Shown here: one piece after another, positions 17,846-42,471 of the stretch
How positions within the stretch are numbered: the first letter of the stretch is position 1
Layout: every line of letters begins with the position of its first letter
Assembly: GCA_963924565.1 (NCBI GenBank)
Contig: OZ004612.1
Span: 26,040,001-26,104,000 of the forward strand
Reading direction: 5' to 3'
Length of the DNA: 64,000 nucleotides
Source of the DNA: Ascidiella aspersa
Lineage: Eukaryota
Made by a program: the position numbers and the translations under genes
The notes under the pieces: generated by a model
What the model saw: only the letters and a program-made list of their open reading frames with translations
What the model was told of the DNA's origin: nothing
The model's database searches: none

Positions 17846-18158
17846 TGGTGTCCCTTTGTGTGATGTCATGTTCTGCCTTCATTGCAACGGCAATAAGTTC
17901 GCCGGTTGTTTTGTTGAAAGTTCCCAAACACGAGTGGCCCGTTAAGCTTGCTTTGGCTGCCTTAAGGTCTTTGTCGCCGATTTCTTCCTCCGAAAGATCG
18001 AATACTTGACTTATGGGATGTTGATTACTGTAATCGCTCGTAATAAGATTTTTCATTTGGGGCCAATCCGTTTCTTTCAAAGGTCTTAAAATCATACCAG
18101 GTAGAATTTCTACTTCATCAGAGTCAAAAAGAGTTTTGCTTAGATTTGGTTGTGTCAT
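17846..18158 (-). pseudogene. 3'-truncated GNAT paralog (inverted copy of 21474 gene)
   Basis: MTQPNLSKTLFDSDEVEILPGM... closely matches the 21474 gene up to RDT, then unrelated; lacks acetyl-CoA motif A and C-terminus. Confidence 0.9.
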
Positions 18159-19536
18159 TGTTTTACAACGTTGCTTAATTGAACTGAAAAGTGTGACGCC
18201 TGCAAAGTAGTAATATGGCAAAGGGTGTTGTTTTTGTTATACTGATAAAAATAAACCTTTTTAGATTCAATGTTGATTCTTTCAACCGGAAGCTAATGTT
18301 ATTCGACAATCTGCCCTAACACGAATGCTACAAGTTATCCGTAAAGTATTGCGTTATCAAAACAGTTAAGCAGCAAATCATATAAAACGGTACGAACTTG
18401 GGCAGTGATTCTGAAGCTGTTTGCCTCGAAATATTGTTAAGTGTGCTGCGAAAACTTTTGCAATTTTAGAAAATCATTAATTTGTATTATAAATAGTCCA
18501 GGCATACACGCAGGCATTTTAGACTCGAATAAGCAATATCCATTTAAAGTTAATATTTTAATACATCTTCTTATATTTTGTCGTATGGTGAGGGTTATTG
18601 CAAGTTTCTTTATTGTTAATATTCTGTTAAACGTGTGACGCAAAATGTTTAAGATTTTTGTGCCGGTAACTGATAACGTTTGGCAACCACTGGATTATAG
18701 AGTCTAACCTGGTTGCATTTATATTGTTGTATCGTAATCAGACCTATGGGCAAACTACAGCCCGCGGGTCCAACCCGCCAAGCAATTTATTCTGGCCCGC
18801 GTCCCAGTTTTCATATATTTGTGCAAATATAGACCATATTATATAATAATCTTGACTTTATAATATTTGATTGAAAAACTATACTTGTAAGGCAAACTTT
18901 GTTTTCGCTACTTTTATCAGTTCGGCAAAACAATCATATTCACTTCTCTTTTAAAAATATTAATGCCTTACAATTATTTTATTTTGAATCTCCTTTTGAC
19001 CCGGCCTTCCTAAACATGTCCTGTTTTACATGCGGCCCTATTTAAATTTAATTGCTAACCCCTGATTTAAGTTAAAAATGCGATACAAATTATATTATAA
19101 AATACTGCAACACTTGCAATAACCGGTTTAGGTGTTCTTGTGTTTTACTGGTAACAATTGTCGCTTAACGTCTGAGCTAACAGCACGCCTTAAAATAAGT
19201 ACAACAACCGTTCGGCTTCGGGTGCATTTGCACGTATTTAATGCATGTTTGGTCGCATTCAAGTGTATTTGGAGCACGCTTGTCGCTTGTGTATTGTGTC
19301 TAGTCACAACTTTGCCAATGCACGTTCTGATTATAATGGGGGGGAAAATCCTTCTTTCCTTTTGCTCGTTTCGCCAAATCATGCTGTCAAATTTTGCCCG
19401 TTTTGGTCACGTTTTGTGCACGTAAATAGTTAAGAAATAACTCAAATCAACCGACTTTCGTACGCGTCTTCGCTTATAGTCTTTCAAAGAAGGTAATGTT
19501 GTTACTACCACTTGGTAATTTACGTATTTGTTAGAT

Positions 19537-19833
19537 CAGTGGTTCTTAAACTTTTATGGCTTATGGCACCCTTTAAAAATCATAAATAGGTGTTCGGCCC
19601 CCCGACTGGAGTTTCCGTTGAGTATTTTACTGAAATGCCACTATAAATGTAACTGAAACATAACAATCAACTTTAAACATGTAGGAAATGGCATTTGATT
19701 TAATGGTCTAGAATCGTACACAATTAGTTGTAGGTATCAAGAAGCTTACCAATGGAGCAAAAATCAGATTGCTAAAAAATCTCAAATACTTATCGCCACC
19801 CTTGCGCATTAAAAATGGCACCGAGAATCACTG
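19537..19833. mobile_element. hAT MITE
   Basis: CAGTGGTTCTT...GAGAATCACTG; TSD tgttagat/tgttagaa. Confidence 0.75.
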
Positions 19834-21130
19834 TGTTAGAACAACGAAACTACTTCCCACACAATTTTGGAAACTTGAAATAATTTTGTGGTGGCATATG
19901 AATTATTGAGTGTGATATAACTAGAGTGTGAAAATTTGATATAAGTGGAAGTGCTACCGTTTGCCCCCCAAAACGACTTTGCGTTTAGTTGCTTTTTAGA
20001 ACGTTAACTCTTTTCTTAATGTTATTCACTTCTCGATTTAAATAATATAACTTCAGAAATTGTGGCTCAGACAACAACAAATAAGGATTAGCCTATTCGG
20101 CTTATTCCCAACACTGTATTTTAATCTCAAAATATGTCTTTTAGCCTTAATCTTAAAATTCCAAGAACCGAATTATCTTCAAACTAATGGACTGTATAGC
20201 ACATTGCCCTTTAAAGTACCAAATCTATTCTAAAACCTGTTGTCGTTTAGTAGCACGTTTTATCTGTTCATATGTTGAGATATATATCTGTTAAAATATG
20301 AGAGTTCGTTGTGTTAATTTTTTAATATTTATCAGTTTATACTATGAGCGTAACAAACCAGTCGTCATATTGCCTGTATGACCACCAAGGTTGTGGCTAA
20401 GCATTTTAAAATGAGGATTCTTGCCACAAGAGGGCTTTGTCCGCGTAGTGTTTTCTGTCGATGAACGTTTTTATCCCACATCCCGTTTCGGATCCCACAT
20501 GAACGTTTTGGATCTCATAAATAACGCAAGCGATTTTCGCGTATTAATTTTCATACAGACATGCTTGCAGCAAATGGTAAGTCAAAGTCATTTTGTATAA
20601 AAAAAAACATGGGATTTCATAAAAATCAGAGGAATCTATGAAATTTAAATAGTAGGCGGAAAACATCTAGTTTTAATTTAAGCTTTTGTTCCAAAATTAC
20701 ATAGGAAATAGTTCGTTCCATCATCTTCAGTTACTGACTGCAAAGGTCCTACGACTATATGGGTATTTTACCAAGTAGTAACAACTCCTTCGAAAAAGTA
20801 TAAGCGAATACTTGTATGAAAGTCGGTTTGCGTTATTTATTTAAATATTAACGTGCCGACAAAACGTGAGCATTGCAAAAAGCAAATTTAGCAGCATGAT
20901 ATGGCGAAAGAGAAAATGTAAAAACAGGATTTGTTTCTCCTAATAGCTATAACATGCATTTGCAAAATTGATACGTGATATAGTGCGCAAGCGTTCTCCG
21001 AATCCACTTGAATGCGATAAGATGTGCATTAAATACCGTCGCATGTATACGAAGCCGAACAGTTGAGGTGTACAGTTAGCTCAGACGTTTAGTGACAATA
21101 AGAATGAAAAACAGCTTCTCTTGTAATTGT

Positions 21131-21186
21131 AATTCTTAACCAACGTTTCGACAACCTATATGCAAGACGCCTTCGTCAGGGTGAAT
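21131..21186 (-). ncRNA. Minimal type I hammerhead-like motif (Penelope-type)
   Basis: Minus strand acc-CTGACGA-a-GGC...GTC-GAAA-CG-TT-ggt with AACGTT palindrome in stem III; short stem I. Confidence 0.4.
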
Positions 21187-21473
21187 GACGGTTTTGATTT
21201 ATTTTACTATGCCTGGAAGCAACAGTTTATTTATTGTTTAGTGAGACAGTTTGACAGTAAAAAACAACCAAAAACTAATCTGGTTATTGTATGTGTTTCA
21301 GTATTTCATAGTATAGTTTGTATCACATTTCTACCTTAAATCTTTAGAAGACCACAAAGAACCAACATTGCAACTAATAAGGTTTATTTTTATCAGTATA
21401 ACAACAACCATTGACGTTTTACTATTTTGCAGGCGTCACACTTTTCAGTTCAAGTAAGCAACATCGTAAAACA

Positions 21474-22166
21474 ATGACACAACCAAATCTAAGCAAAACT
21501 CTTTTTGACTCTGACGAAGTAGAAATTCTACCTGGTATGATTTTCAGAGTTTTAAACGAAACGGATTGGCCCCAAATGAAAAGCCTTATTACAAGCGATT
21601 ACAGTAATCAACATCCCATAAGTCAAGTATTCAATCTTTCGGAGGACGAAATCGGCGACAAGGACCTTAAAGCAGCCAAAACAAGGTTGATGAGCGACGC
21701 GTGTTTAGGAACTTTCAACAAAATAACCGGCGAACTTATTGCCGTTGCAATGAAGGAAGAACATAGCATCACAAAAAGGGACACCATATATACGGCTAGA
21801 CAGCGAAAGGCTTCGGTAATGCGATTTTGGAAATCCTTGCTAGGCGATGTGTTTGCCGATTTAAACACCAGTCGTTATACATTTCTGTCAATGGCTTGCG
21901 TGAAAGCGGAGTATCGTTCTAGAGGTATTATCACAGCTATGCTTGACTTCGAAATGCACCAAGCCCGAAATAAAGGCTGCGAATATTTCGTGGCCGTGGC
22001 CACTTCTGTTTTTACACAGAAAGCTTTGAAACGTTTGGGTTTTAAAGTTTTGAGGGAAGTGAAATACGCGGAATACGTGGACCCCGACACTGGATTGAAG
22101 CCAGATCTAAAACTATCTCCTATCCACACTTCTTGCCAGCTGATGTACATACCTATTCAGCTATAA
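21474..22166 (+). CDS. Insect-type arylalkylamine/dopamine N-acetyltransferase-like GNAT
   Basis: VKAEYRSRGI (motif A), ATSVFTQKALKRLGFKVLREVKYAEYVD, SPIHTSCQLM resemble the Drosophila Dat/AANAT1 family; first ATG shared with paralogs; single coding exon. Confidence 0.9.
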   Translation: MTQPNLSKTLFDSDEVEILPGMIFRVLNETDWPQMKSLITSDYSNQHPISQVFNLSEDEIGDKDLKAAKTRLMSDACLGTFNKITGELIAVAMKEEHSITKRDTIYTARQRKASVMRFWKSLLGDVFADLNTSRYTFLSMACVKAEYRSRGIITAMLDFEMHQARNKGCEYFVAVATSVFTQKALKRLGFKVLREVKYAEYVDPDTGLKPDLKLSPIHTSCQLMYIPIQL

Positions 22167-24313
22167 TGAGAAACAATAAAAATGTATATGCTAGTCTAGT
22201 GCATTGTTTACAGGGGAGGCAGGTGAGACACTGTTATATCAGTTATATCTCTACCGTAAATTTTACGTTTCTATACCTAAAGCGTGCTTTCTTTTTTCTT
22301 CTATTTCGGTTGCGTTATTTATATCAAGCGTTCACGCGGTGGAAATCATTGAATTACGTGAAGAGAGGCAGCGCCAAGCCGTGCCCCTCTTCAGATCACA
22401 AAAGTGCCATACACTGCATTATGCGTGCCCTTTTCTTTCGCTATTCTCTCGGAAAACATGATGAACGATTTAGCTATGGTTTGAGGCATGTCTCAATTGT
22501 GACCTTCCAACTATGAAACCTTTCTTCGTCTAGCTTGAATGCCCGCATAGTAGGTGTACATTGACTTCTTGTAGTGTTAAGCTCTAAAGTTGAAGTCAAA
22601 AATAAAGGCAGCCCTGTTGCAAATTTGATACTTATGCATAAGATGACTTGACAAAAAAAAATAAATAAACAGGCAACTGTCAAAGAGATTGGTAAAAAGG
22701 AGTATTGCCACACCTATAATTGTCATGCACTGTTACGTCATAAACGATGGAGTCATTATTACGTTTGGTATATTAATGTATTTTGACTACTTTTTAGTTG
22801 TTTTGTTTTGATCGCTGAATGATTTTTGAGTTTTTTTTTTTATTATTACTATGCCGTTTTTGTGGTTGTTAAAGAAAACGTGACTCGAAAAGAATTGTGC
22901 CTCACCGTCTAAGAACCTCACCGCACGTCACTGTTGTTTTCTCTTAAAAAAGGTTGACAAAATAATAGTGCATTCATTTTACTGTTTACAGTATATTCAT
23001 ATATGCCTGTTCCAACACTGAGAGTTGTTAATATTCTCTTCATACCGCAAGACATTTGTGGCGATGTCAAAAAAACGTCGATGTTAATAACCCTTTTTTG
23101 AAAGTAAAACTCGATGAACTTTTTTTATCAAACAATTTATAAACTACACTAAAACGACCGTATGATTTCACTTAAATGATAAAAAAAACGTTTTTACTAA
23201 AATTCTACTAACTGCTGGAAGGCAGTAATAATAGCATTTTGTATTATATTTTAATTGGCTTTTGCAAAGTTACCGATTTTTCTGTTTGGTTCCACATTGA
23301 CTTTTATCCTAAACATTTGACTTCGTAAACGAATGTTAGTCGTAAATTTCGCTTGGCATATGATGCGTTAGATGTTATTTTGAGTTATTGCTTATAATCA
23401 GTCGAGTTGGTTAGTTTTAATAGTTAAACGTTGTAAAAATGACTTGTTTACAACACTGTTAAGAATACCAAAAACGGTTTGGTTTTCGTGGAAACCTATA
23501 TACTTAATCATATTTCTATTTTTCATCTCACGCAATGCTGCCATAATTGCACGTTCGATCAGTCAGTATATGCGTTAAGGTCTCGGAAAATGTATATCGT
23601 ATGTTGAGCAATGTTTGTCTGTTCACTTTACGCCACACTGAGCCCCGTTAATATCGCAAGAGCTTGTGTCAAGTGTAAATTACAACTAAAACGAAAAATT
23701 AATTTCTTTTTTTTTAAATGTAAATTTTGCCTTCGTAAATGTAAATTTTCCAGCTTACCAGCTACTTGACAAACAATAATTGTAGCAATCACATTGATTA
23801 TAATATGTTTTTGGTAAACTAAGGCAGTTAAAAACCTTTCTAGTCGGCCTATTTTAACTTCACAGTGGCTGGAGTGCTGTACCAATAGAAAACAGACACC
23901 GTTTTTCAAGTACGAGCTGCATGTTACATTTATAAAAACCTGTAATTCACTCGTTTTATTTGAACTTTCAAAATAAAACAGTTAAAAAATAAGTATAATC
24001 TTGCGAGGAAATGTATGACCATTTATTTTTTGTCGTTTTTAGTAAAGTTCGAATGAATATGTCTTTTGCAATTGTGAAATATATAATTGCAACAAACAGT
24101 AAAAGGCGGCGAATTATAGAATGGACGCTTTGCAAACATGGTAATGAATATTCCTGTAAAAATAAACCAATATATAAGTTAGCGTTAACCAATCAACACA
24201 CGTTAATTATTTAATACAAAGTTACCAGGTGAAACGATTCTTTACATTTTTAAATAATGTGTGTTATAATTTTGCAATAATATAGGATGTACCACTACCC
24301 TATACTACGAAAT

Positions 24314-25027
24314 TTAAAAATCAAATTTAAAAGAGCTTGTTTTATTAGGCTTTTTTGGTTGGACTTGTTTGTACACCAATTGACATGAAGTGTGAATTGG
24401 TGAAAGTTTTAAATCTGGTTTCAATCCAGTTTCGGGGTCGACGTAGTCGGCATATTTCACCTCCCTAAGCACTTTAAAACCCAAGCGTTTCAAAGCTCTT
24501 TGCGTAAAAACCGAACTGGGTATCGCAACCATATATTCACCGCCTTGCCTTTGACGCATATCGTAGTCAAGCATAGCGGTTATTATACCTCTTGTACGAT
24601 ACTCCGCTTTTACGCAGGCCATTGAGAGAAAAGTGTAGCGACTTGTGTTCAAATCGGCGAACGCATCACCTAACACGAAACTCAGAAATCGCGTCACTGC
24701 AGGACTTAGGCCTCTGCTAGCCGGGTTAACTCCTTTCTCGCTTACGTCATGTATTTTCTTTCTGGCAAAAGCGACAAGTTGTCCGGTCTGTTTGTCAAAA
24801 AACCCAAAACAACCGTTGCACATCAGCGTCTGTTTTGCTGCTTGAAGGTCTTTGTCTTTGATGTCTTCTTCCGAGAGATTGAAGGTTTGGCTTATTGGAT
24901 GTTGGAAACTGTAATTGCTCGCGATGAGGTCAGACATTTGGGGCCAATCGGTTTCGTTCAACATTCGAAATATCAGGCCAGGTAGGATTTCCACTCCTAC
25001 AATTCCTCCCAAACTTGGTTGTGTCAT
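24314..25027 (-). CDS. AANAT-like GNAT paralog
   Basis: Intact ORF with the same motifs; 2-residue deletion near RQRQGGEY. Confidence 0.9.
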   Translation of the reverse strand: MTQPSLGGIVGVEILPGLIFRMLNETDWPQMSDLIASNYSFQHPISQTFNLSEEDIKDKDLQAAKQTLMCNGCFGFFDKQTGQLVAFARKKIHDVSEKGVNPASRGLSPAVTRFLSFVLGDAFADLNTSRYTFLSMACVKAEYRTRGIITAMLDYDMRQRQGGEYMVAIPSSVFTQRALKRLGFKVLREVKYADYVDPETGLKPDLKLSPIHTSCQLVYKQVQPKKPNKTSSFKFDF

Positions 25028-27050
25028 ATTCAGCAAAATAACGATATAAACGTGTAATAATAATATTATAAATCAACTAAAAATGTGTAACGTGTTGAAC
25101 TGCTAAAAGTAAAAGCCTATGTTATACAAAGATACATGTTTTAGTTGACACGCGAGTTGAGAAAATTGTGTGTCCTATTCAAGACTGATAATGCTTTTAG
25201 TTACAACAGAAATGTTTGCCAATTGAAGCCCTGTGTTCAATACTGAAGTAACATTGTGCGAAAGAAAGATTTCGTGAGGAATGAGTTGTGCAGTATATAG
25301 TCTATGCTCCCGTGCCGCAAGTGACCAGTAAAACTACAGTTTTTCCATATATCACCACCGAATTTAACTGAATGCGTCAATTTAACTAAAAAAGTGTTTT
25401 CAAGTATGAACATTTCGGTAGCAAAATTCTTCAGTTTTACACTTTTTGTTAGTTTATTTTTAATAAGCAAAAAAAAAATTAGGCTATATATGCTAGTAAG
25501 TTCCCTTTAGTACATCAATATCATCAATCTAAGAAGTATCTAACAAATCTCATTAACTTTTAGCAGCTTTACAAATCTTTAAAATCGATTGTGCTGTTTA
25601 AACTCCGCAGTCTTTATTTTAATTCGAACTCTAATCATATAGTTAAGGGTAAAATCAGACAACTGTTTAACTTTAGATTCTATTTTATACAACCGTATAC
25701 CAATAATAACTAAAACCGACCTTATTAGCACTGAACTACAAATTAAAAAGAACAACCGATTATGTTCAGCGCAATATATTAAACAAATTTGTGGCTCATA
25801 ATTAAGGAAGTGACTCAGTCCACAAGATTCGTTAACGGAAGTTGCGTTTACTGCTTGGGAGTGATTTGTGACACGAGAAATGATAAAAGAGAAATTTCAA
25901 GAAGGTCACACACATAAGTTGTGACGAATACAGGAAATACTGACCATTTATAGGAAAATACCTTTACGTGGCAAACTTAGCGTTTATAAAGTTAACTTTT
26001 CTAGATCTTGTAAAACAACCTTGGCCACTTGAAAAGACATATTTTTTCGTTTGACGATGTACGCCTATGGATCGGTGTTCTTTAACGCTTGTCTTTTTTT
26101 CGACGACAAAAGGTTGGCATACGTCAGGATTTTTCCTGGCATGTCGGAAAATTTGGTGTTGAAATGTGCGTCAGGGAAAACGCTAAAATTTTCTTACAAG
26201 CCCGTAATTTTCTGCAATAATTACACAATAAAACATAGAAAAAAATTCTTCAAAATTGTGTACGCTTTAATATTAGATTTCTGTTTACGAGAAGTAGCAC
26301 AATATTTGGTATTTGACTTGCCACGCCTTTCGATCGTTCGTTAAATTGCTATTCAATGTTACCTCACCCACCATGTTTTATTTGTTATAGTCATTTGGCT
26401 TACGTTCATGAAATCAATATCAAAGAAGATTGAGTAGTTGTTTGATGCGAAAAAGCAAACTGTTACCAACAGCTAATTGCGTTATTTACGAGCAAAGTGT
26501 ACAGTTGCATCCCATATTATTTAATAAACAGAAAAATCGTTTTCATATTTAAATAATTGCCGTTTTAGTAAATCTGAATCGCGTTTACTTTTGACCAGCA
26601 CACATACTGCATGGGCTACACATTTCAGCCCTAACATTTTCAAAGAATTCGTTTTTGTTGTTAGAGATCGGTTATAATATATTCTTAATATTTCAATATT
26701 TCAGCCAGATTATATTTATCTTTTTACATTTTTCAGGTGATGTAACGTCTCTTGCGAAAGACGGAAGATGTAGCTTGGTGCAATTTACGAAGTGATGTAC
26801 AATGAAAATTGGTTATATTACTGTTTATTGCAATAAAAACGGTAGTTACGTGCAAGTTGTTGTACTGTAATGTCTAAATAAAAACATTTGCTATACAAAT
26901 TGTGTTTTTTTTTTTTACATAAATCGTCTTAACATCAGTAACTCTCTATATTACTTTACATACGGTACTATATAGACTCTATATTATTGCACAAAGAATA
27001 TACAAATTAGTCCTAAATCAAAAATGTTTTCTGCTAACTCCTTATTGCTG

Positions 27051-27785
27051 CTAATCCGAGTTATTGAAAAGTTTTTTCGTTTCGGCTTCTGATGGTTGAA
27101 CACGTTTGTAAGTCAATTGACAGGAAGTATGGATTGGAGACAAGTTTAAATCGGGCTTCAATCCTGTCTCACTATCGATGTAATCTGCGTATTTCACCTC
27201 TCTCAGAACCTTGAAGCCTCCATGTTTTAAAGCCTTTTGCGAAAACGCTGAGCTGGCGATCGCCACCACATACTCACAGCCATTTTTACTGCCTTGAACG
27301 AAATCAAAATCGAGCATGGCCGAGATTATGCCTTTGGAACGGTACTCGGCTTTTACACACGCCATGGACCAATACATGTATCGATTGGTGTTTAAATCCT
27401 TGAATACATCACGTGACATGAATTCCGCAAATCTTGCGAGAAAAGGATTTCGTTCCCTAGCGGAGGCATGGTTAATGGCCGATTCACTGATATTCTCTGT
27501 TGTCTTCATAGCAAAGGCAATAAGTTGGCCGGTCTGTTTTTGGAAGGTCCCAAAACAGGCATTGGCCCTGACCATTTCTTCGGCTATCGCGAAGTCCACT
27601 CCTTCGATGTCTTGTTTGGAGAGCTTGAATATATGTCGTATCGGGTGCTGGTGACTGTAATAGCGGTCGATAATGTGTTTTACTTCGGGCAAATCACTTT
27701 CGTTCAACATTCGATATACAAAACCGGGTAAGATTTCCGTTCCTTGGGGTATGAGCTTATCTTTTTCCAAACTGGATTGTGCCAT
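27051..27785 (-). CDS. AANAT-like GNAT paralog
   Basis: Intact ORF; YSHQHPI, CVKAEYRSKGI, LSPIHTSCQL. Confidence 0.9.
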   Translation of the reverse strand: MAQSSLEKDKLIPQGTEILPGFVYRMLNESDLPEVKHIIDRYYSHQHPIRHIFKLSKQDIEGVDFAIAEEMVRANACFGTFQKQTGQLIAFAMKTTENISESAINHASARERNPFLARFAEFMSRDVFKDLNTNRYMYWSMACVKAEYRSKGIISAMLDFDFVQGSKNGCEYVVAIASSAFSQKALKHGGFKVLREVKYADYIDSETGLKPDLNLSPIHTSCQLTYKRVQPSEAETKKLFNNSD

Positions 27786-28451: not shown

Positions 28452-31400
28452 GCCTATAGACTACCTTAATCAATCTTGTTTAACGTTAGACAATCTCTTA
28501 TATACCATGGTATCATCAACTGTTATGGCAAGTACAACACGCAAATAAATGCTTGTCTGTTACCAAAGGAAATGTCAATCATGTTAATGCGTATGATTGG
28601 CGAAATTACTTATATTTAGTTTTGCGACACAAGTTATAAAGAAACAAAAATTCCCGAAGCGTGCAATCATGTCGTCATCTCAATTAAATACACAGCAAGT
28701 CAGCAAATACAACGGACTTTTAAAAGGGAATATACCTCAATAACATAAAACAAAACTACAGCGCCCCACACAAGTAGGACAACCTTATATACTGTGGCAT
28801 TTTGAAGGCCTATTCACTACAAATCTTCTTGCGTACGAATGTTTTCATACGGGCAACAAATTGGTCGGGTTTTTCAAAATGAACTTTTTTCCCAGAAATC
28901 ATTGCGCGACGTGCATTTTCCTAAACCAAAATAAGATATCAGATTACCACGAATTTCGGTAAAAAAAATGAGATAGTGTATCGACACACGTTCGACTACG
29001 AAATTAATTTGAACTAGTTGCGCGTTCCACTCAGACAAGACGGATTTACAAAGTTCCAAGAAAAAAATTAAAATGCCATATGGGTAAATGCCATATGTGA
29101 TTTTTCGTGTATCACATATACGTCATGGTAACTTCTGTTTAACCGCGCGTTCTGTTCGACGCTAAGCGAGTGACAACATTTCTTTGAAATTTTGAAGTTA
29201 ATTTAAAGAGTATATATCATAAAACAATTTTAAATTTCGACCAAAAAATCCCCAAAACTCTATACAAAAATACATATTAGTCGTATACGAAAGTAAGCAA
29301 CATTAACAAGATAAAATTTCTTGGCGATTAAAGCTTTCTAGAATTCACAAATCCATATAATTGCAGACTTGCGGTATCGAGTCGAACTTAATACTTTACG
29401 TGAATTTTGTCCAAAAGTATTGGAAGATAATTATTGAGCAACCAAGACCGACAATTTTGGTGCACTAATTTCGAAAACAATGAACTTAGTTTTTTCCACG
29501 TAGGTTCTAACAAAATATTTAAGAAAACTAACAAGTGTTTTATACGTTGTTATATATTAGCAGCCTCCAAAAATAACGCTTAAACCTTATCACGGTGCCT
29601 GTTTCCTTCTTAACCTGGTTTTACTTAGTTAGCAAGTTCTCCATACACTTTTCCATCAAAATTTAACACAGATTAAACCTTACGTTGTGGTATTCACAAC
29701 CTAACGACCAACTGACAGACCTTTATATTTTTATTAGGTTAAAAATGTGCAACGGTTTAATGATCCCCTTTTTCTTGTCATTTTAATACGAATTCGTGTA
29801 AATTTGCTGCACGTTTTGAGCGTTTTTTGACTCTTCGTGTCCTACTAACCTAAACTCGTGGACTTTTGCCGCTTACGCGCAATCGAATAACAATTGTGCC
29901 CAGAAGAAATGGCATTAAATAACCCTCAATTACCTCTGTTGAATTTTCCAACTTAAAGACTTCTTCCATTTCCTGCCTTTTTTTACTAAGAGCCTTCGTA
30001 ACACGAAAGTAGTGCCTTTAAATTCTGTTTCGAGCTTGCACAAAATTGTTTAAGGCCTAGCAAATGTCGTCAGGGTAGCTTCTATTCTAAACTGAATTTT
30101 AACTTAAACTCTTTACAAGTCACTTGCTCTTTACAATCTGACTGTATAAATAATAAAGATGCGTCAGGCCTATAATGGTTTAATTGACTATTTGACAAAC
30201 TCTATATTTTATGGCCTGAATATATGTGCCGTAAGGCCCCTATTTTTCGCCAGTGGTAAAGGCCAGATGCTGACATAAGGTAGTAAGTCAACAGGTATTA
30301 TAGCTGGACATATCTTTTTAAGTCAGCGGTTCTCAACCTTTTTTTCACCGCGTACCATCTCGAGGTTCTATGATCTTGTTGCGTACCAACAAATTATCGA
30401 AAAACTCAACTTTACTGAAAATGTATATAGGATTATTAACAGGGGTGGATTAGCTAATTAGTTAGTCCGGAAATTTCGAAACAAATGCGGCCCACTAATC
30501 TTGAAAAAGTTTCCCTTTTTGCAAGATACCGGTAGTCAAGTTTTGTGATTCTTTGTTGTTTTTCTATGTCATAAAATAAATTTGCATAGATGTTCCGGAA
30601 AGATAATAATTCCTATCATTGATGAAGCATAAAAGATTTAACTATACAATCATAACGATGAATGTATAGTTTTATTACAATAGAAAAAAATGCTAAACTT
30701 TTTCGTAAAACTGCAATTTTATTTAAAAACATACTGCGTACCACCCAAAATGACTTCGCGTACCACAGATTGCTTTAAGTCAATGCCTAACGAGGCACTT
30801 GACTTAGGCGCAAATAAAACTTAGGATGGCCCAAGATTGGCGAAACATTGGAAATAGGACGAGAATAGAACACTCTTTTAGCCGTGCCGAAGTTAAAATT
30901 TGTCCATTAGCTGTTTGGCTGCACTAAAATCGTCGTAGGCCTATTAGTTAACAAGGGCAATGAAATTATAACGCCTTTATCTCCCTAAAATTTTATAGTT
31001 TGTGAAGATGTTTTGTATGGTACAACAGTCAGATTCTCGCAAAAGCGATAAATGTGTTTAAAGGCAAAATTATATGTTGCCATTATCTCCCTAAACTTTT
31101 TAGTTTTGTTAAAGAGTTAAATGGTGTAAAATACAGATTTTTGCAAAATCCACAAATGGATTATAAACTTACATTGCAGCTAGATATATTTTATTTTTTT
31201 GGAACCGAAACAACTATAGTAGTGCAAATTTACAAAGAAAACTACAGTTGTTTGTTTCAGGATGCAGCGAAAGATGTGGTATGGTACATCGAGCCAACTT
31301 GCACGCAGAACTTTTTGCTGAAAAGGTGTTCTCAAGTCGTGTCAGCATTTAAAAACTTGCTTAACGGTTAACATTGCCAGTATATAGAAGTACGTTTTTG

Positions 31401-31506
31401 TAAATGTGGTAACAGGCGACCAATCGTTATGGCGGAAACTCACAGCAACGACTTTCGTGTAAAACGTGTTTTAAAAACGTTTTGAAAGCTCTTTTGTCTC
31501 GACTGC

Positions 31507-32201
31507 CTATGGTTGAATATGTTTGTAAGCCAGCTGACATGAAGTGTGAATTGGTGAAAGTTTCAAATTGGGCTTCATTTCAGTTTCGGGGTCGACGTAG
31601 TCGGCATATATCACTTCCCTTACCACTTTAAAACCCAAACGTTTCAAAACTTTTTGTGAGTAGGTTTTGAACTGGCCACAATCACGAAATAATTCCCGCC
31701 TTCATTTCTGGTTTGCTGCATTTCGAAATCGATCATCGCGGTGATTATACCTTTGGAACGGTATTCCTCTTTTACACAAGCCATGGATAACAAGAAATAT
31801 CGGCTGGCGTTTAAGTCAGCAAATACATCCATTGTCAAAACTTTCAAAAATCTCGTCACTGCGGCCTTTCGCTTTCTGGCAGCATGTATGGTGTCACCAT
31901 TATTTTTCTCATGTCTTGTCTTCATGCCACAAGCAACTAGTTCGCCGTTTTGCAAGTCAAAAGTTCCATGACAAGAGTTGTCGATCAGCATTTCTTCAAC
32001 TGCCGCGAGGTCTTCGGCTTCTGTTTCTTCAATAGGTAGCCTGAATGTTTGATTTAAAGGGTGCTGGTTACTGTAATTGCTGGTGAACAGACTTTTAATT
32101 GCGGGCAAATCCGTTTCGTTCAGCTTTCTGTATAGCATTCCAGGTAATATTTCTACACCTTCAGGAAGACTTCTAACTTTCCACATATTTGGTTTTGTCA
32201 T
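31507..32201 (-). pseudogene. AANAT-like GNAT with one frameshift at ~31667
   Basis: After VASS the family frame resumes shifted: TYSQKVLKRLGFKVVREVIYADYVDPETEMKPNLKLSPIHTSCQLAYKHIQP-stop (31507); lesion lies in an A4 run. Confidence 0.85.
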
Positions 32202-32896
32202 TGTTAAGATCAAGTTGATTTTTAACTATAAAAACAAAATGCTCACATTATTCTGTTACTCTAACAAAATATGGCAGCAGTTATATTAGCCTTGTTGTGT
32301 AAAATATAGTTAATGGTAATCAAAGTCGGTTTTACAATTGGTTCAATTTATGAATGTGTATATAGAAAAACAAATCGTATTTTTTCGCAGCATGACAAAA
32401 CATATTACGCTTGGGGGTGACAGCTCGAAATACGTTATCAATAATTTTCTACAAAATTTGCAAACGTATAATTAATAAAGTCGCAACTTATAGTTAACCA
32501 AGGTTAAAAGAAGAATCTAGTTTTCCTGTTACTAAACTTTTATTTGAGATTGTGCTTGGCCCCGTTATTTTGTAATTTCAGTGCAAATGACCAAAACATT
32601 TCTGAAATTGATGAAGCCAAAATGGTTCAACAAACCTTTCAAAAATCACAACAAATGTACACTGGCAGCGAATTGGTGTAAGGTGAAAGCAGGGTTTAAA
32701 TAAAATGATTTTCTGACCGAAAAGCATGGAAACTTAAAAATTAACGCCACAAAGTTGTATTATAACTAGACGTCGCAAACTAGTAACCTTAAGAAACCTG
32801 AAGTTATCGCTAAAAGTCTGCAAAAATATGCAAATGAAAACCCTAAAACCCAACCTATATAGTTATAATACACCAAGAAGATGTTGGCCTGGCCTG

Positions 32897-33111
32897 TAAA
32901 AAAGACCCGGACTGGTAAAAAGTAAAAGCTCCGGACTGGTAAAAAGTAAAAAAGACCCGGGCTGGTAAAAAGTAAAAGCTCCGGACTGGTAAAAAGTAAA
33001 AGCTCCGGACTGGTAAAAAGTAAAAAAGACCCGGACTGGTAAAAAGTAAAAGCTCCGGACTGGTAAAAAGTAAAAGCTCCGGACTGGTAAAAAGTAAAAA
33101 AGACCCGGACT
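32897..33111. repeat. Minisatellite with two unit variants (~23 and ~26 bp), ~9 copies
   Basis: AAAAGTAAAAGCTCCGGACTGGT and AAAAAGTAAAAAAGACCCGGACTGGT in a long-short(-short) pattern. Confidence 0.95.
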
Positions 33112-34155: not shown

Positions 34156-35345
34156 ATGAGCAAGCATAAAAATGTTTTTCGTGACGATTACGAGAGGTGG
34201 AATTCAAAAGTATTAAACGAAGCTTGAGTGTTTCGCACCCTGCAATATCTGCAAATGCGACATTAACCCGGAGTTCATAGCAATAACCGCTATTTCAACA
34301 CACATTGATACCCAAAACACAAGAAGTGTTTCATAATGATTAATTCAAACCAGTCAATGAATAAGTTATTCACAAGTCGACCAGCACAAACGACCACAGA
34401 CTACAAGGCAGCTGCTGCTGAGGGTACCTGGGCATTCCATACTGTTAAAAACTAGCAATCATTCCTCACCAACGATTGCACATCGCTACTGTCCAAAACA
34501 ATATTCCCCGATTCCAATATCGCAAAAAAAGATGGCCTACGCCAGGACCAAGATTCCAAGCGTCGTACTGGAGTCATTGCTCTATACTTAAAAAAAATAT
34601 TTTGTCTGATCTTGGTGTACAGTCCTTCTTCATCTCGGCTGACGCCTCTAATCGCAACTAGGTGAAGCTATTTCCTCTAGACCAGGGGTTCTTAAACTTT
34701 TTTACCGCCAACCCCCTCAAATTCAAAAAGGACATCATAAATACACGCCACAATACAAAAGAACTTCGTAAAGTTTTTTAAAAAACATGTAAAGTGAACT
34801 ATTTTCTTTAAAAGGTTGATTACTTCTTAAGCTTAATGATAACCTTGAAACTAGTTCACAAACCCCAAAGGGGTCCATGGCCCTCAATTTAAGAACTCGT
34901 GCTCTAGTTATAAGATTCTTCAGTCAAGTTGATGCGAGTATGTCTTCTTGACTTGCGATCTATGTCAGGCGGGACATCGGCACACACCATAAACTTTATT
35001 ATCTCCTCTATGAAAGAGATTGTTCTAAAAATAGAACAGCTAACATCCTTTTGTGTAGATAATACACCAGTAAATTTTGAATCAGAGCATAGTTTTAGGT
35101 ATTAAAGCAACGTCTTCGTCTTAAAAGAGCAAACATTACATCTGTTACCAGTCGGCTGCCCTGATCATATTTTGCATAACGCAGTTAAATAAGGGATCAG
35201 AGCACCCCACACTATAGACGCACGAACAATCATACTGAAAATTGGTAGCCGCCAAAACCTAAACTGGTATAGATAAGGCTCAAGCATTTTTGTGACAAAC
35301 TTGATACCAACTACTCGACTCTACCTACTCACACGCGCACTCGAT
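34156..35345 (+). mobile_element. Decayed hAT transposase with nested MITE (34683-34901)
   Basis: Fragments CNICKCDI..THIDTQKHKK (BED-like), AAEGTWAFHTVK, FPDSNIAKK..ARTK, ISADASN, SFCVDNTPVNF, GCPDHILHNA (CxxH); multiple stops and frameshifts. Confidence 0.8.
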
Positions 35346-35359
35346 ATAGCACACTTAAT

Positions 35360-35585
35360 GCTGTACTCGGGCGAGTGGCCAAAACGCATTTTATTTCGCT
35401 CTTGCAGTAACTGGGCTACAACGTTTACGACTACATGGACCTTTGCAACAATCATGGTGCCAGGTGGGAGCGGATTTTTGAGAGTGGTGGAAGTACAGAA
35501 GATTTCTGTGGAATGTTCTCGACTGTCGATGCAGTTACCAACGTGCCGGTTTGCGTGTTTTGGTCCACGAAGCCTTCGCTGAACA
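35360..35585 (+). pseudogene. Fragment of Sulfotransfer_4-like P-loop gene
   Basis: LGYNVYDYMDL...WERIFESGGSTEDFCGMFSTVDAVTNVPVCVFW then frameshifted HEAF; resembles family pattern LGYxVYD...DAVTDxP..FWEE..KAFP. Confidence 0.55.
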
Positions 35586-37176
35586 TAAGGAAATGCGAAG
35601 GTCAACAGGATTTTTAGCAGTTAAAAATGTTGGACTGCGAAAACTATACATCAGGGTTTTAGGTCCAAATATGAATGCTAGTTAGCTTCAGGCGCGGATC
35701 GAAAAATTTCGTTTGGGGTTGTTGAAATTTTTTTAGTGACAATATTGCTCAGTTGCGTCAAAATGGTACGTTATCAACAAGATACGTCAACATGTGACGT
35801 CACAAAATAACATCTAAACATGAAGACATAAAAGTAAACCTTAAAAACGTCACACAATTTAAATATTTTTTAGGTTAGAGAGGCTTTACTTTTAAAACAA
35901 AAGCTATACATTAGAAAAATGATATCGAGACGCAAGAAGCGCTAAACGCTTTCACATCGTTTAAGCTCAAACATTTTTTTCGTGAGTACGATGGGCAATG
36001 TTTTAATGAATTAACTTAATGACTAAACTAAACGATTATATTGCTACATGTTGTGTTTGTTATTTTTTGAACGAAGTCTCTCCAGTATTGTAAACATGAC
36101 ACTTTGAAAAGACTGAAGTCTCAGTCAAGTAATTTAAAATATACCAGGCCAAGTCCCAGTCAAATTCATCAGTTGCCAAAATAAAGTCCTAGTCAAGCCC
36201 TTGTTTAACTACGTTAACGTAAGTTAATCACTAATACAAAAATGATACAATAAAGTAATGTAGCGTCACGCTCATACCCATGTGCGTAAGTTCGTTTTTC
36301 CGATTTTTCTGATTTTTTGCTGAAGGAAAAAGTGCCTAGGTAAATTTTAGTTCATTTCGCATGCACATGTATGAGCGTGACGATATCGTAAACTCGTCCG
36401 ATTATGACTAAATAATAAGCACAAAATATAACAAGCAAATTGTTTTAATACTTTGTTTTATAAAAATATTTCACGTCCACCCAGATGATTTGACTCAATG
36501 ACTCAAGTCCTATATTCAAGCCATTTGAAACAGAGAAAGTGTATCACAGAACCAAACCAGCTATTAAGTAAACATACCACGCGACAGCTAAGTGTTGTAA
36601 TCTTGTAGCACCTTCATTCGCATTTTGCAAAAAGGCCAGGTTGGTGGTTCTCGACTCTTTAATGCCTATAGCGGTCTTCTCTTCCATGGGCGGATCTCGG
36701 AATTTTGTTTGGGGGTTAGACATGACATACTTTAGAAATGACGTTACAAACTTACGTCATAATTTGACGTAACAGAATTATGTTCCACCGTGGCGTCACA
36801 ACGTTACATCTAAGAGTGAACTGAACGCAGTTCGTTTATTGAGTTTTAGATTAGACAGGTGTTTTGCTTTGCCTATTATATAGGCAAAAATACAGTTTGA
36901 GGGCCTTGGACTCCTTGGTTTCGCCCCTGGATCTTAACATCTTGTTGCCCTATGTTCACGTTTTAGGACAAAACGTCAAGGAACGTCCCAAAGTAGGCCT
37001 ATGAAGATTAAATAAAAGAATAAAATTTGATTTTAACTTTGAAACACAATACACGTTGTTTTTAGTAATTTTAATAAAAATATCAAAGCCATAATGTTCG
37101 ACAGAATCGACATGTCGCAATTTACAGACGTTTCAGCAATAACTCCATGTTTAATAGCTTTTATCTTCACTTGATT

Positions 37177-37220
37177 TTTACACTGACGATGGCATGAGGC
37201 TTTGCTAAAACGTCTGTAAA
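37177..37220 (+). ncRNA. Degenerate minimal type I hammerhead within an inverted repeat (Penelope-like remnant)
   Basis: TTTACA-CTGACGA-T-GGCA..TGCT-AAAA-CG-TC-TGTAAA: perfect 6-bp stem I, GAAA mutated to AAAA; the inverted arm at 37121-37138 retains GAAAC. Confidence 0.55.
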
Positions 37221-38322
37221 GTGCGAAATGTTGATTTTATCGAATATTATGGCTTTGACATTTTTATTGGTTTTAACTTCCAATAATACTTTAGAAAGTA
37301 TATGCTTGAGGCCACCTGAAAACCGCTATGTGAACCCCAAGGGAGCCGGTCCATACTGTCATGGTATACCATAAATATATAAGTGACGAATATGCTTTGC
37401 CCCCCAAAAGCGGATATTAGTAAACTGTATTGCAATTAAAACCACCAACGGTTTCTGGGTGTTGGGTTGACCCCAGTTTAATGACTACTGTCCTATGGCA
37501 TTATAGAACATCGTGTCGGACAAATAGTTGTATTTAAGCAGACTTTATTTAGGTTTGAGCACTCGACCTGTTTTGCTCATAATTTGCATACAATTTATGC
37601 TGTCCCATTAAATTCTGTATAAAAAATAACGAAATATAGCTATAAAAAAGTCAGTATAAATATTGTTAGGGAAATTTTAACCACCATTTGGCGTTTTAAA
37701 TAGTCTAAATTACTTTTAAGTTAACTAAAAAAAAAATAAAAAAAATAGCACATCACCTAAAATGGTAATGAAAATATGCCTGTAAAAAATCCCATGTTTT
37801 CGTATTAGCATAGTTATTATGGTTTCGTTTATGTTGGTATGCTCTTCTGGTAATTCAACAATGGTTTGAAGTACAAATTCTCAACACAAATGTGGCGCTT
37901 CTTGTAGCCTGCTGTTAACTATAGAGATTTATTATTAACAGTTTTCCATGTCGTGTTTTATAGTGTTCTCTGAACAAAATACTAATAACAAACAGGAAAC
38001 TCTTATAATATAAGTTTTATAATTTTATAAGTTTTGTTGTTGTAAGTTTTACAATTTTATAATACAGTTAACAAAATCGATAGTGAGTAACACATCTGTA
38101 TCAACGTCAGTGTTTCACGTTGGATATTTTCCAGAAATAATTACCTTTATTATAAATGCTAAAACAAGTTAAGGCGGCCAACAATGTAATCATGATTCGA
38201 TAACAAACGCCTAAAATCGTTTTATGTTTATATAAAAAACGGCGTTTTTTTTAAATTTAGGTTCGGTTTACAAAACTCAAAACATCTTCAATATCTACAC
38301 GCCTTATAAAAGTTTTTCTGTT

Positions 38323-39021
38323 TTAATTTGAAGGATTTACACTTTTGTACACCAACTGGCATGAAGTGTGAATTGGAGACAGCTTTAAATCAGGTTTCAA
38401 TCCAGTTTCGGGATCTATAAACTCGGCGTATTTCACTTCCCTCAGCACTTTAAAACCCAGCCGTTGAAAAGCGATTTGAGCGTAAATGGAACTCGGGATA
38501 GCAACCACGTATTCACAACCCTTGTTTCTGGCGTGGATTAATTCTAATTCAAGCATAGTCGTAATTATGCCCTTTGAACGGTATTCGGCCTTGACGCATC
38601 CCATAGAGCCGTACATGTATCGACTGGTGTTCAAGTCAGAGAAAACGTCGCCTGAAAGGAACTTTAGAAATCGCATTTCCGGGGAGTTTTGCTCTATAGA
38701 AGAAATGTGACTGTGTCCTTGAGTGACATCGTGTATCGTGTTCATTATAACAGCAATAAGTTCTCCAGTTCGTTTTTCGAAAGTCCCCAAACTAGCATTG
38801 CTCCTAATTCTCTTTTCAACTGCCACTTCGTCCTCCTTTCCTATGTCTTCTTTTGAGAGTTTAAAGATTTTTCTTGCTGGGTGCTGGTAACTGTAATTGC
38901 TTCCAATAAATTCCTTCACCTTCGACAGATCTTTTACGTTCAAGAGTCTTAATATCAGTCCAGGCAGGAGTTGAACACCTTTATGAAACAGCTGAATTTC
39001 TCCCAAAATTGATTGTGTCAT
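38323..39021 (-). CDS. AANAT-like GNAT paralog
   Basis: Intact ORF; YSYQHPA, GCVKAEYRSKGI, LSPIHTSCQL; an in-frame upstream ATG at 39084 also exists. Confidence 0.9.
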   Translation of the reverse strand: MTQSILGEIQLFHKGVQLLPGLILRLLNVKDLSKVKEFIGSNYSYQHPARKIFKLSKEDIGKEDEVAVEKRIRSNASLGTFEKRTGELIAVIMNTIHDVTQGHSHISSIEQNSPEMRFLKFLSGDVFSDLNTSRYMYGSMGCVKAEYRSKGIITTMLELELIHARNKGCEYVVAIPSSIYAQIAFQRLGFKVLREVKYAEFIDPETGLKPDLKLSPIHTSCQLVYKSVNPSN

Positions 39022-40195
39022 ATTTGTTAGTAGGCTATGTACTATGTCTTTCTTAATATATACTATGCCTGATAGCAACAGCATATTTGTTAACTTAACT
39101 CAATTTGAAACAGTGAATTAACACATTAAAACGTTGCCAATTATTTTAACTCTATTTTCTGGCAACAAACGCGATAAAAAACAACTTTTTTTGACAGACA
39201 TATAGCCTTCACTCAATGATCTCAGCGCATTCGGTATAATTTATCACAAATAAATTGCAATTCAGCTTTTCAAATAATTATTTACCAAGGATCACCGACT
39301 TGACAGTGTTATTAGGAGCCTCAGCGGACAGAAAGTTAACTTAACTTGTTTGCCTCGTTAACGCTTTTGCTGTTTTACTACTAACACGTGTTCGTTGGTG
39401 ACACGTTCTGTCGACATTCGTGCAGTTTAGTTCCGCTTGTTTACATTCCGAGCACTATCTTGTGAAAGGTGGTAGAACTTTTGTCCACACCAGGACAAGT
39501 CAAGTCATTTTGAATAAGTAGCAGTCCCAGTCAAGTCATAATATAGCAATACCGCTACTATAAAATGATAAATGATAAACTCCAACATAGTGCAAGTAAA
39601 ACTTCTTCGTGCAAAACCAGGATAAATAACTCAAATATTTTCGGTCGTCATTCAATTTTATTCCACTTGATAACATTCGGGAAACTATCTTGTGAAAGTT
39701 TGTTGAATGTTCGTCTACACCAGGACTTTCTTTACTATTTGCTTTAGAACTGTTAGGGGGACGTAAATGTTAAAAAACATCGTGGATTGGATGTAACACA
39801 TATTTTAAAACTATCTTTACAATGGACTAGGCCAGTGATTCTCAAACTGGGGTCCGCGAGACAATTTTCTTGGACCGCGAAGCACCTAACAAAAAATCAA
39901 CACGACGCTCCTAAAGAAGAAAATCATTTGTGCAATAAAATTTTCAGGCAACTTACTTTTCCAAACCAACCTTAACCAACGCAATAATATTAACTATGCC
40001 GGACAGAAGAAAGGCCTCCAGACTCATGCTTCCATTCTTCGAGTTGGATTGTGCATTGTGACGTCATAGTGTTGCATCGTGCTAATGAGAATTGTTGCGT
40101 TTTTACAGCTTGCTGCGCTGCCACTGTGGCACTGTACGGTCACGGTTTTTAAACTGTTCGAGATTGCTTCACTCAAATAAAGTGATTCGTAAGAG

Positions 40196-40640
40196 CTGTG
40201 GTCGGCAAACTTTTTTTGTCGCGGCCCAAAGTATCTTCCGAGCTATTGAAGGCCCACTACGTAAAACCACTACGAAACAGTAACGGATTCAGAATACTTG
40301 ATTTAAGGTGAAATATTACACAGCACTTTTAAGCCCAAAACTCTGCCATATCATAATGCAAAACATACTTTGCGCAAAATTTTTTTCAATTACACATACA
40401 AAAAAATAGCAAAAAATATAGTTCGACAGGTTTTTAGGACCACGTTTTGGGCCAAATTAAAAATTCGATGCCACACCAACTTTTAAAATAAAGAATGTAC
40501 TAAAGAATGCAATGAATGTACGGCTATCACACGGCCCACAACTACATGATAACACTGAACTATTTAAATGTAACTCGAGGCCCACTGAAATGGCTCTGCG
40601 GCCCACATTTTGGCCGCGGCCCACAGTTTGCCGACCACTG
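40196..40640. mobile_element. hAT MITE
   Basis: CTGTGGTCGGCAAACT...AGTTTGCCGACCACTG; TSD cgtaagag/cgttagag; same family as 48546-48842. Confidence 0.9.
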
Positions 40641-41751
40641 CGTTAGAGGGTTTACTGTTTCCGTTGAAATTTACATCTTAAAAGCAGAGGCAGCCTGTGA
40701 CGCAGTTTGGAACTCGGCCACTCCCATAATAATCGGCTTACAATGCTAAATACAGTATTAAAAACGTGTTATTTTGTGTTTATTTTTGCCCGAATTAAGT
40801 CAGGCCCATGTTTCTTTGTTGGGATTTCTTTCGGGTTTAAAGTTGATTATTTCCGTATTCTGAGCATTTTAAAGTTTCGGTTAAGCTTTAGTGTTGAATA
40901 ATTGTTTAAAAACCCTTTGGTAAACTATTGTGATATACAATTTACTTTTCCTAATAAATTTAGGGGTTCAAATTGTCACGCTAAATGTTTAAAACTTGTT
41001 TCTTCCAAATTACTAGGTTAACGCTATTTCAACTCAGTGCTTGTGCTTTATTAGTAGATCATCACTGTGTAAAATGCACATATCGTAGGGTGGACTATGT
41101 TTAATAGACACGTCGCTAAACAGCTGTCCAGCAGAAAATCGTGATTAATGACCCGGGCAGCGCCTTTAATAAGCTCACTGTATGTAAATAAATTTTAATT
41201 TCACCAACTTTATCTTCACTAAAGCCGAGAAAAGTCTCCAAACTTTCGGAAGATTTGTTATCATTAGTTTGCCATCATGGACAACATCATGCTGCCAATA
41301 GTGGAACACATATATTTCAGGGTTAAGTTTTGTTTCATTTGTTTTCGAGTTTAATATGATATCAAGAGTTTGTTTGCCAGATTATTATTTTATTAGTGAA
41401 GGGTTTTAGAGTTTGAACAAAGGTTAGAAATGGTAAAATAAATAGGCACAATTTTAAACTGGATGATGTATCGTATTGCTGATTAAGCTTAAAATCGCTT
41501 TACAAATTAAACTGTAAACTGTAGATTGTACATAAAATCTGACGTTAAACATACATCTCCATTTTTCAAAAATACATATTTTGTTGTAAATGTGAAAATG
41601 TGATTTGTTTGCAGACCATTAACTTTTGAAGGCGTGGCTCCTCTCGTTTGCATATTTCTTTGATAAGTGAAGTCAGGTGCATTTGTTTTTCTATATTTCT
41701 TGCCAACATTTGTATAACAGTGTATTGCTTTGTCCAGTTTTATTGCTAACT

Positions 41752-42471
41752 ATGGCGCAACCAAGTTTGGAAACTAATGAAGGAGTAGAAATCCTACCAG
41801 GAATGAAGTATAGAATGTTGAACGAAATGGATTTACCCGAAATTAACGACATCGTTGCAGATAATTACAGTTATCAACACCCGATCAGGCAAACATTCAA
41901 TCTATCAAAGGAAGACATCGGAGACAAGGACATCGTGGGAGTTAAACAAATGCTGGCGAGCAAATCTTGTTTTGGAACTTTCCACAAACAAACTGGTCAG
42001 CTTGTTGCTTTTGCAACGAAGTCTGTTCACGACAAATCGAAAGGGGACACCATTCATGCCGCCAGAGAGCGAAACGTTTCAGTGGCGAGATTTTTAAAGT
42101 TTCTGTCAGGTGACGTATTTTCCGAACTAAACACCAACCGATACTTGTACTGGTCCACGGCTTGTGTGAAAGAAGAATACCGTTCCCAAGGGATTATAAC
42201 GGCTATGATTGATTTCGAATTGAAGCACGCCGGAAATAAAGGATGCCAATACGTTGTTGCCATTGCCAGTTCTATATATGCACAAAAGGCTTTGAGACGC
42301 CAAGGCTTCAAAGCTTTGAGGGAGGTGAAATATGCCGACTACGTCGACCCTAAAACTGGGATGAAGCCGGAATTAAGCTTGTCTCCAATCCACACTTCGT
42401 GTCAGTTGGTGTACAAAGCTATACAGCCATTAGAAGCCGTAATACATAGTATTGTAAACAAGCCATTTTGA
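41752..42471 (+). CDS. AANAT-like GNAT paralog
   Basis: Intact ORF; YSYQHPI, CVKEEYRSQGI, LSPIHTSCQL; last codons overlap a MITE end. Confidence 0.9.
   Translation: MAQPSLETNEGVEILPGMKYRMLNEMDLPEINDIVADNYSYQHPIRQTFNLSKEDIGDKDIVGVKQMLASKSCFGTFHKQTGQLVAFATKSVHDKSKGDTIHAARERNVSVARFLKFLSGDVFSELNTNRYLYWSTACVKEEYRSQGIITAMIDFELKHAGNKGCQYVVAIASSIYAQKALRRQGFKALREVKYADYVDPKTGMKPELSLSPIHTSCQLVYKAIQPLEAVIHSIVNKPF

Follow-up and report, generated by a model that had tools for sequence, protein, structure and literature searches.

The stretch of DNA analysed in the present study, called the window below, comprises 64,000 nucleotides of Ascidiella aspersa (contig OZ004612.1, positions 26,040,001 to 26,104,000), and the subject is an array of genes for putative arylalkylamine N-acetyltransferases (AANATs) of the insect type (iaaNATs). 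Comparison of the window with itself, using stop-to-stop frames and tblastn, revealed exactly seven homologous places in mixed orientation, named g1 to g7, and the array continues beyond the window. Contigs of the genome (G000) are given as C1, C2 and so on, and PTS1 denotes the predicted C-terminal peroxisomal targeting tag.

18158-17745, minus strand: g1, truncated pseudogene; its frame continues through unrelated sequence to a stop at 17745
17597-19518, minus strand: arm of g1, an inverted duplicate; four blocks matching 20768-23247 around g2 at 70-90% identity
21474-22166, plus strand: g2, intact copy of 230 amino acids with a predicted iaaNAT fold, the motif QHP and no PTS1
25027-24314, minus strand: g3, intact paralog of 237 amino acids, sister of g2
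27785-27051, minus strand: g4, intact paralog of 244 amino acids
32201-31507, minus strand: g5, frameshifted pseudogene with 2 extra bases near 31663
39021-38323, minus strand: g6, intact paralog of 232 amino acids
41752-42471, plus strand: g7, intact paralog of 239 amino acids with His43 at the place of the insect Glu47
C6:26,109,435-26,110,262, 5 kb beyond the window: g8, eighth intact copy, with a C-terminal extension of 40 residues
26,115,064, beyond the window: further fragment of the family

The five intact frames of the window (g2, g3, g4, g6 and g7) are single-exon and encode 230-244 amino acids with a mutual protein identity of 53-66%, which points to a relationship far beyond chance. 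The sequence-only reading of this DNA had described five intact, one frameshifted and one truncated paralog in mixed orientation, and all seven were recovered at their places, as was the stretch RYTFLSMACVKAEYR that it had cited as common to g2 and g3. Its seven-copy cluster is right for the window, but the array goes on to g8 and a fragment, and the cluster makes up only a minor share of a clade with more than 50 genes. Homology of g1 covers the 5' half only (codons 1 to about 106, ending at 17841-17846), and g2 positions 21787-22991 have no counterpart at the junction 17846/17836, where a deletion of about 1.2 kb has taken the 3' half. Against g2 it shows a synonymous divergence (dS) of 0.15 and a ratio of non-synonymous to synonymous divergence (dN/dS) of 0.55, values that indicate a young duplicate under relaxed selection. 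In g5, the C-terminal 50 residues run on in another frame. The g1 breakpoint is spanned by contigs of runs X1 and X2. An X1 contig, from a run that is possibly the assembly's own sample, equals g5 letter for letter over 31187-32925 (1,739 bases); an X2 contig, with about twice the usual X2 depth and so perhaps collapsed, lacks the 2 extra bases of 31663 and carries a 2-base insertion at 31605. Since the two contigs carry different 2-base lesions, g5 is seemingly broken in two independent ways. An assembly error behind the lesions of g1 and g5 is unsupported, as contigs span both. Among the differences listed, a contig of run X2 also has deletions of 2, 1 and 2 bases at 42241-42246 in g7, and a 5-base insertion near the end of g7 (42438) was seen in that contig and in two RNA reads.

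For the whole family, a genome of 308.6 Mb in 75 contigs was searched, and the counts, coming from three single-protein searches, are lower bounds. The g7 query gave 107 exon-wise matches across the genome, and from the fetched loci frames of 45 intronless and 15 two-exon genes were built. One clade holds 39 intronless and 15 two-exon copies, that is, 54 full or nearly full reading frames, four of them doubtful (two with aberrant C-termini, one with a short N-terminus and one without an in-frame Met). Its support was 0.97 in FastTree (184 rows and 215 columns, with 125 library relatives) and 92.7 in the fast mode of IQ-TREE (69 rows), one of two identical C8 copies being omitted from the trees. 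By hand count, about 21 further loci hold broken copies or fragments of the clade, and about 22 iaaNAT-like loci lie outside it, of which 14 are multi-exon, most with a Glu-Pro-type motif. Further tandem arrays are found at C6:27.57-27.67, C1:31.52-31.59 and C3:8.2-9.2 Mb. A single branch, called the window branch, unites the window copies with g8 and a pair at C8:24.3 (support of 0.98 in FastTree and 88.8 in IQ-TREE). Outside the clade, multi-exon iaaNAT-like genes (L097-L108) at C3:5.55-5.64, C6:23.2, C1:29.48 and C2:28.26 Mb are tandemly expanded and most are of the Glu-Pro type; these are likely conventional enzymes. A single family member has six almost identical 3' fragments (L064, L110-L114) scattered across 2.5 Mb of C7 (2.6-5.1 Mb), and a larger repeat may have carried them.

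An ascidian host is shown by the single cellulose synthase (CesA) match in the genome, which is 93-95% identical, across some 255 residues, to the CesA proteins of Ciona, Styela and Molgula. The chordate host that had been supposed is thus borne out, and an arthropod, in which such clusters would be routine, is rejected on the tunicate type of this enzyme. The protein library gave 841 matches at E≤0.001, and 125 of the best 150 passed a filter of 195-300 amino acids and entered the tree. Among these best 150 of 841, only P0001, P0018 and P0019, all unnamed Logan proteins, fall inside the clade, P0001 having 86% identity to g2, and no named protein of Ciona, Styela, Phallusia or Clavelina does so. 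When 30 library matches were checked by name, eight clusters were named, all of them tunicate (Phallusia 2, Ciona 2, Styela 2, Clavelina 1, plus Styela P0041), and the rest were unnamed. The nearest named relatives of the clade are Phallusia proteins, which weakly suggests that the host is a phlebobranch; the best identity to named proteins is 27-35%, and a protein search with an alignment of 44 sequences returned four proteins. Within the resolution of a library clustered at 50% identity, the clade therefore seems restricted to the lineage of the host, and these matches indicate that the wider iaaNAT-like family is diverse in tunicates. The Phallusia member P0020 (CAB3265803.1) is labelled 'ribosomal protein S6 kinase-related protein', an apparent misannotation.

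The mode of evolution was examined with Nei-Gojobori estimates for the 15 pairs of the six intact copies g2, g3, g4, g6, g7 and g8. In 14 of them dS was 0.95-2.3 and dN/dS 0.13-0.36, ratios that are rough under such saturation of synonymous sites, and one pair was saturated. Counted by g7 residues, the non-synonymous difference per site was 0.19-0.34 (1-88), 0.26-0.44 (89-125) and 0.10-0.20 (126-228), the strongest conservation among the window copies being in the half that binds coenzyme A (CoA). The array is thus old and under purifying selection, as judged from these estimates. They agree with what the sequence-only reading had seen, a conserved C-terminal half, diverging N-terminal and middle regions and many synonymous differences, and its proposal of birth-and-death evolution holds, with broken copies, tandem spread and old selected frames. 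Growth would have proceeded by tandem and inverted duplication and loss by frameshift and deletion, as would be expected of a chemical-defence or detoxification repertoire. Recent retroposition is not needed as the reason for the lack of introns, since the nearest outgroup genes (C7:10.5 Mb, C4:27.92, C3:27.06 and C2:9.35) are also intronless. A single phase-1 GT-AG intron, apparently a gain, is common to the 15 two-exon copies.

The family assignment was examined by sequence and by fold. Pfam gave weak GNAT matches in six of the seven window frames. With g2 as a single query Aedes AANAT2 (4FD5) was matched at E 1.5e-4, with a profile of 38 sequences at E 6e-9, and with a profile of 44 relatives at E 4e-32 over positions 1-220 of 223. 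The last profile then ranked Tribolium AANAT, Drosophila Dat (E 1e-22), AANAT5b, AgmNAT, AANAT7, the chlorella virus polyamine acetyltransferase A654L (E 2e-12) and Ebony (C-terminal domain, E 1e-5). The AlphaFold model of g7 (mean predicted local distance difference test score 90.3, predicted template-modelling score 0.85) has a GNAT fold with a helical insert between beta3 and beta4. In a wide structural search with this model, the top seven matches (Z 19.6-22.1, root-mean-square deviation 2.2-3.1 A over 193-216 residues) all belonged to the group of insect AANATs, Ebony C-terminal domain and A654L. The top five were iaaNATs with the same fold, including the beta3-beta4 insert, at Z 20.6-22.1 (Dat/AANAT1 3TE4, AgmNAT 5K9N, Aedes AANAT2 4FD5, AANAT5b 4FD4 and Tribolium 6V3T). 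The Ebony domain (6DYM, Z 19.6) and A654L (3QB8, Z 20.0) are of the same fold group; unlike them, the host proteins stand alone with a kept CoA motif, and both match more weakly by sequence. The next GNAT followed at Z 16.1, and the N-terminal protein acetyltransferases at Z 15 or less. Foldseek ranked the same group first, and the nearest clusters in the ESM Atlas were arthropod AANAT-like GNATs (0.97). Vertebrate SNAT was found neither among the 28 PDB sequences matched at E≤0.01, nor among the 9 of the 38-sequence profile, nor among the structural matches shown; such absence does not exclude kinship, and no SNAT sequence was compared directly. The iaaNATs lead the rankings by a wide margin, and profiles and predicted structure together indicate that fold and ancestry are those of an insect-type AANAT.

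The active site was compared with that of the insect enzymes, in which the Glu of the DEPLN motif is the general base and also helps to bind the amine (PMC6070697). At this place the window copies read Y-S-x-Q-H-P-(I/L/A), with His at the place of Glu47 in all seven. The register is free of gaps by way of an in-genome paralog, whose NYTYNEPLR aligns to NYSYQHPIR of g7 and FFADEPLN of 4FD5. In the 53 aligned clade members, the Glu47 column holds His in 29, Asn in 12, Val in 4, Gln in 3, Tyr in 2, Ser in 2, Lys in 1 and Glu in none, while Glu was present in 68 of 122 other relatives; six clade members, none in the window, have Glu or Asp one residue earlier. Other places are kept: Arg153 in 49/53, Gly156 in 42/53, Ser183 in 52/53 and His220 in 45/53, and all five intact window copies have Arg153 and Gly156 (the pyrophosphate turn of motif A) and His220. 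The Ser182/Ser186 places, which vary among insect enzymes too, are Thr/Thr in g2, Ser/Thr in g3, Ser/Ser in g4 and Ser/Ala in g6 and g7. The alignment thus suggests a conserved CoA side and a rebuilt acceptor side. Likeness to the iaaNATs lies in the Arg and Gly of motif A, Ser or Thr at Ser182, His220, a length of about 230 amino acids and a multigene family; unlike them, the host proteins have 12-18% identity, QHP for DEPLN, His for the catalytic Glu and a strict PTS1 in 15 of 54. The sequence-only reading had found the motifs to fit the insect Dat/AANAT family, which acetylates dopamine, serotonin and tyramine; its family stood in fold and ancestry but not in the key motif. The activity is not transferable to the window copies because the general-base Glu is His. 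These genes appear to be iaaNATs in fold with one defining motif failed, and should not be annotated as dopamine acetyltransferases.

The predicted localization divides the clade. A strict PTS1 was defined as C-terminal [SAC][KRH][LM], and related copies are non-independent for the counts. Among clade members outside the window branch, 15/46 end in SKL or SRL, and 24/46 carry a tag under a looser rule; in the window branch the strict tag is found in 0/8, and the old frame of g5 ends in HIQP. In the array at C1:31.5 Mb, 10 of 11 copies end in SKL, SRL or GKL. The background of the same tripeptide class was 29 of 12,340 internal positions, and 14/122 other relatives carry it, including the tunicate proteins Phallusia P0020, Ciona P0033 and Styela P0074, which share the SKL end. 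The simplest interpretation is that the window branch lost the tag, because in the trees tagged copies occur on the basal and on several derived branches. The genome also has a match to Pex14 (N-terminal). Fly Dat ends in a PTS1-like tripeptide. AANAT and Dat are unmentioned in PMC7477296, which was checked for a peroxisomal insect AANAT.

Expression was examined with about 6% of the reads of a single RNA run labelled as the same species. The depth per bin was 0.4-0.7 over g1, 1.2-1.3 over g2, 0.2-0.6 over g3, 0-0.8 over g4, 0-0.2 over g5 and 0.4-0.5 over g6, and 0 over 41426-42227, most of g7, while intergenic bins at 25.6-26.7 kb reached 2-3.6, above the genes. Apart from the trace at g5, the reads mapped to a single strand, whichever way the genes were oriented. 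The low one-strand coverage at 17200-27400 extends over genes and intergenic DNA and is possibly a long overlapping or unspliced transcript. In six of the seven copies, the ATG is preceded at a distance of 14-83 bases by acceptor-like pyrimidine-AG sites (chance rate not controlled), which would be compatible with an intron in the 5' untranslated region or with trans-splicing.

We consider it fairly probable that the window genes encode cytosolic acyl-CoA-dependent small-molecule acyltransferases whose acceptor site has changed from the insect one. Acyl transfer to small molecules other than the insect substrates is likely, because the insect catalytic Glu is absent. The iaaNATs work by direct transfer in a ternary complex. 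Here, the acyl-CoA would lie in the beta4/beta5 cleft and be attacked directly by the acceptor, with His43 serving in place of Glu as base or acceptor ligand; such a His would be less suited to the cationic arylalkylamines used by the insect enzymes than to other amines or to hydroxyls. The first helices and the rapidly diverging insertion in the middle would adjust the acceptor pocket in each copy, and we infer that substrates diverge among the copies. The window branch would come from peroxisome-targeted ancestors with the tag lost. In a wider and more tentative form, which we hold as a possibility rather than an expectation, a repertoire of over 50 acyltransferases, with a novel active site built on His, would be divided between the peroxisome (SKL-tagged copies using acyl-CoAs of beta-oxidation) and the cytosol (the window branch) and would make N-acyl amides or esters native to the animal. 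If true, this would offer host candidates for the enzymes behind tunicate natural products or tunic chemistry, whose biosynthetic genes are unknown. Several points weigh against the reading as cytosolic acyltransferases: the tag is a motif prediction, the tree placing of the window branch is moderately supported, g6, g7 and g8 carry Ala at the Ser186 place, and each of the five intact window copies has Ile where Ala158 would stand. Furthermore, in the one RNA run expression of the genes was not evident, the depth of 0-1.3 being no higher than in nearby intergenic bins. Finally, Dat E47A keeps 0.23% of kcat/Km, according to PMC3429931, and the copies could therefore be weak or non-catalytic. 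Drosophila AANATL2, however, works without its DEPLN Glu as base (PMC6070697), therefore loss of this Glu need not abolish activity.

The copies could also be ordinary arylalkylamine N-acetyltransferases for dopamine, tyramine and serotonin, with His replacing Glu, that inactivate amines or make N-acyl-catecholamine cross-linkers of the tunic. The closest solved structures are Dat, AgmNAT and the Aedes AANATs, the ESM Atlas points to arthropod AANAT-like clusters, and ascidian dehydrodopamine compounds have been proposed as cross-linkers (PMC3039461). Against this stand the amine-binding role of the absent Glu, the separate Glu-bearing genes of the genome with NEPL, WEPL, HEPL, REPL and DEPL, which could acetylate arylalkylamines, and the size of the clade, since a few amines would not require more than 50 copies; we regard it as unlikely. 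Loss of the general base, with variable Ser186 and motif-A places and the Ebony domain in the same structural group, would also suit non-catalytic binders, or enzymes with another class of donor or acceptor such as carrier-bound acyl groups, as in Ebony, or protein substrates. The CoA-binding half is nevertheless the most conserved, the Arg and Gly of motif A are present in all intact window copies, Ebony is far weaker by sequence (E 1e-5 vs 4e-32) and the N-terminal protein acetyltransferases rank well below, which makes this quite unlikely. Intronless frames, many fragments, the very low RNA depth and dispersed repeats between the genes (seen as spikes of read depth) would fit copies that arose neutrally through duplication in repeat-rich DNA, or that were recently acquired by horizontal transfer. 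We consider this very improbable: the frames are open at saturated dS with dN/dS well under 1, by which it is largely refuted, g2 has its 86% orthologue in another data set, the nearest named relatives are tunicate, and the in-genome sister group has a spliceosomal intron. The cytosolic acyltransferase with a changed acceptor site is therefore the interpretation that we retain.

Insect-type AANATs in a tunicate are not new, because Ciona genes are included in PMC4394704, which gives two iaaNATs in Ciona intestinalis and four in Saccoglossus. Genes of this wider family are known in the same subphylum from Ciona and as 'arylalkylamine N-acetyltransferase 1-like' in the Styela clava RefSeq set. 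Copy number differs: the 54 clade members and about 22 other loci compare with 8 genes in Drosophila and 13 in Aedes, as counted in PMC6070697. New here, as far as the sequences indicate, is a very large lineage-restricted expansion in which the canonical catalytic Glu is lost, with a split in predicted peroxisomal targeting. Amphioxus, also an invertebrate chordate, likewise has a lineage-specific expansion of intronless genes for amine acetyltransferases (Pavlicek et al. 2010, as cited in PMC4394704), which reportedly comprises seven members. Unlike the host clade, that expansion concerns AANATs of the vertebrate/non-vertebrate type, which form a GNAT group of their own according to PMC4394704. 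In a full-text literature search covering mostly titles and abstract starts and few subscription journals, there was no report of an ascidian expansion, a His variant or Glu loss, or a peroxisomal AANAT.

Ascidians contain dopamine-derived metabolites of poorly known biosynthesis, such as pyridoacridines and dehydrodopa compounds, as described in PMC4660921 and PMC3039461. A link of these metabolites to the acyltransferase clade would be speculation; the genes behind dopamine- and tryptophan-derived metabolites of tunicates are poorly known, and the question is directly testable because a large selected single-exon family is easy to express. The clade is also a natural experiment on GNAT catalysis, with dozens of selected proteins of predicted iaaNAT fold that lack a supposedly essential Glu and with repeated loss of the peroxisomal tag. 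If the proteins were plain dopamine acetyltransferases, it would be merely another lineage-specific gene expansion.

The rest of the window holds other repeated features. Two intronless receptors at 51397-54972 and 60135-63488, both on the minus strand, have about 10 or more LDLa repeats and a rhodopsin-type seven-transmembrane domain; they are tandem duplicates that differ in the number of 114-bp LDLa units, and Pfam reported no leucine-rich repeat family in them. Receptors of such type with LDLa repeats are present in Ciona. Beside them, at 46750-50765 and 56911-59721, lie seven copies of non-coding tandem units of about 1.24-1.5 kb that are 66-98% alike, with inverted pieces at 43563-44447. 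A gag-pol frame of a long terminal repeat retrotransposon with a reverse transcriptase domain lies at 2-2317 on the minus strand and extends past the left end of the window, and 9526-12674 and 13085-15972 form a recent tandem duplication of about 3.3-3.5 kb with 97-99% identity.

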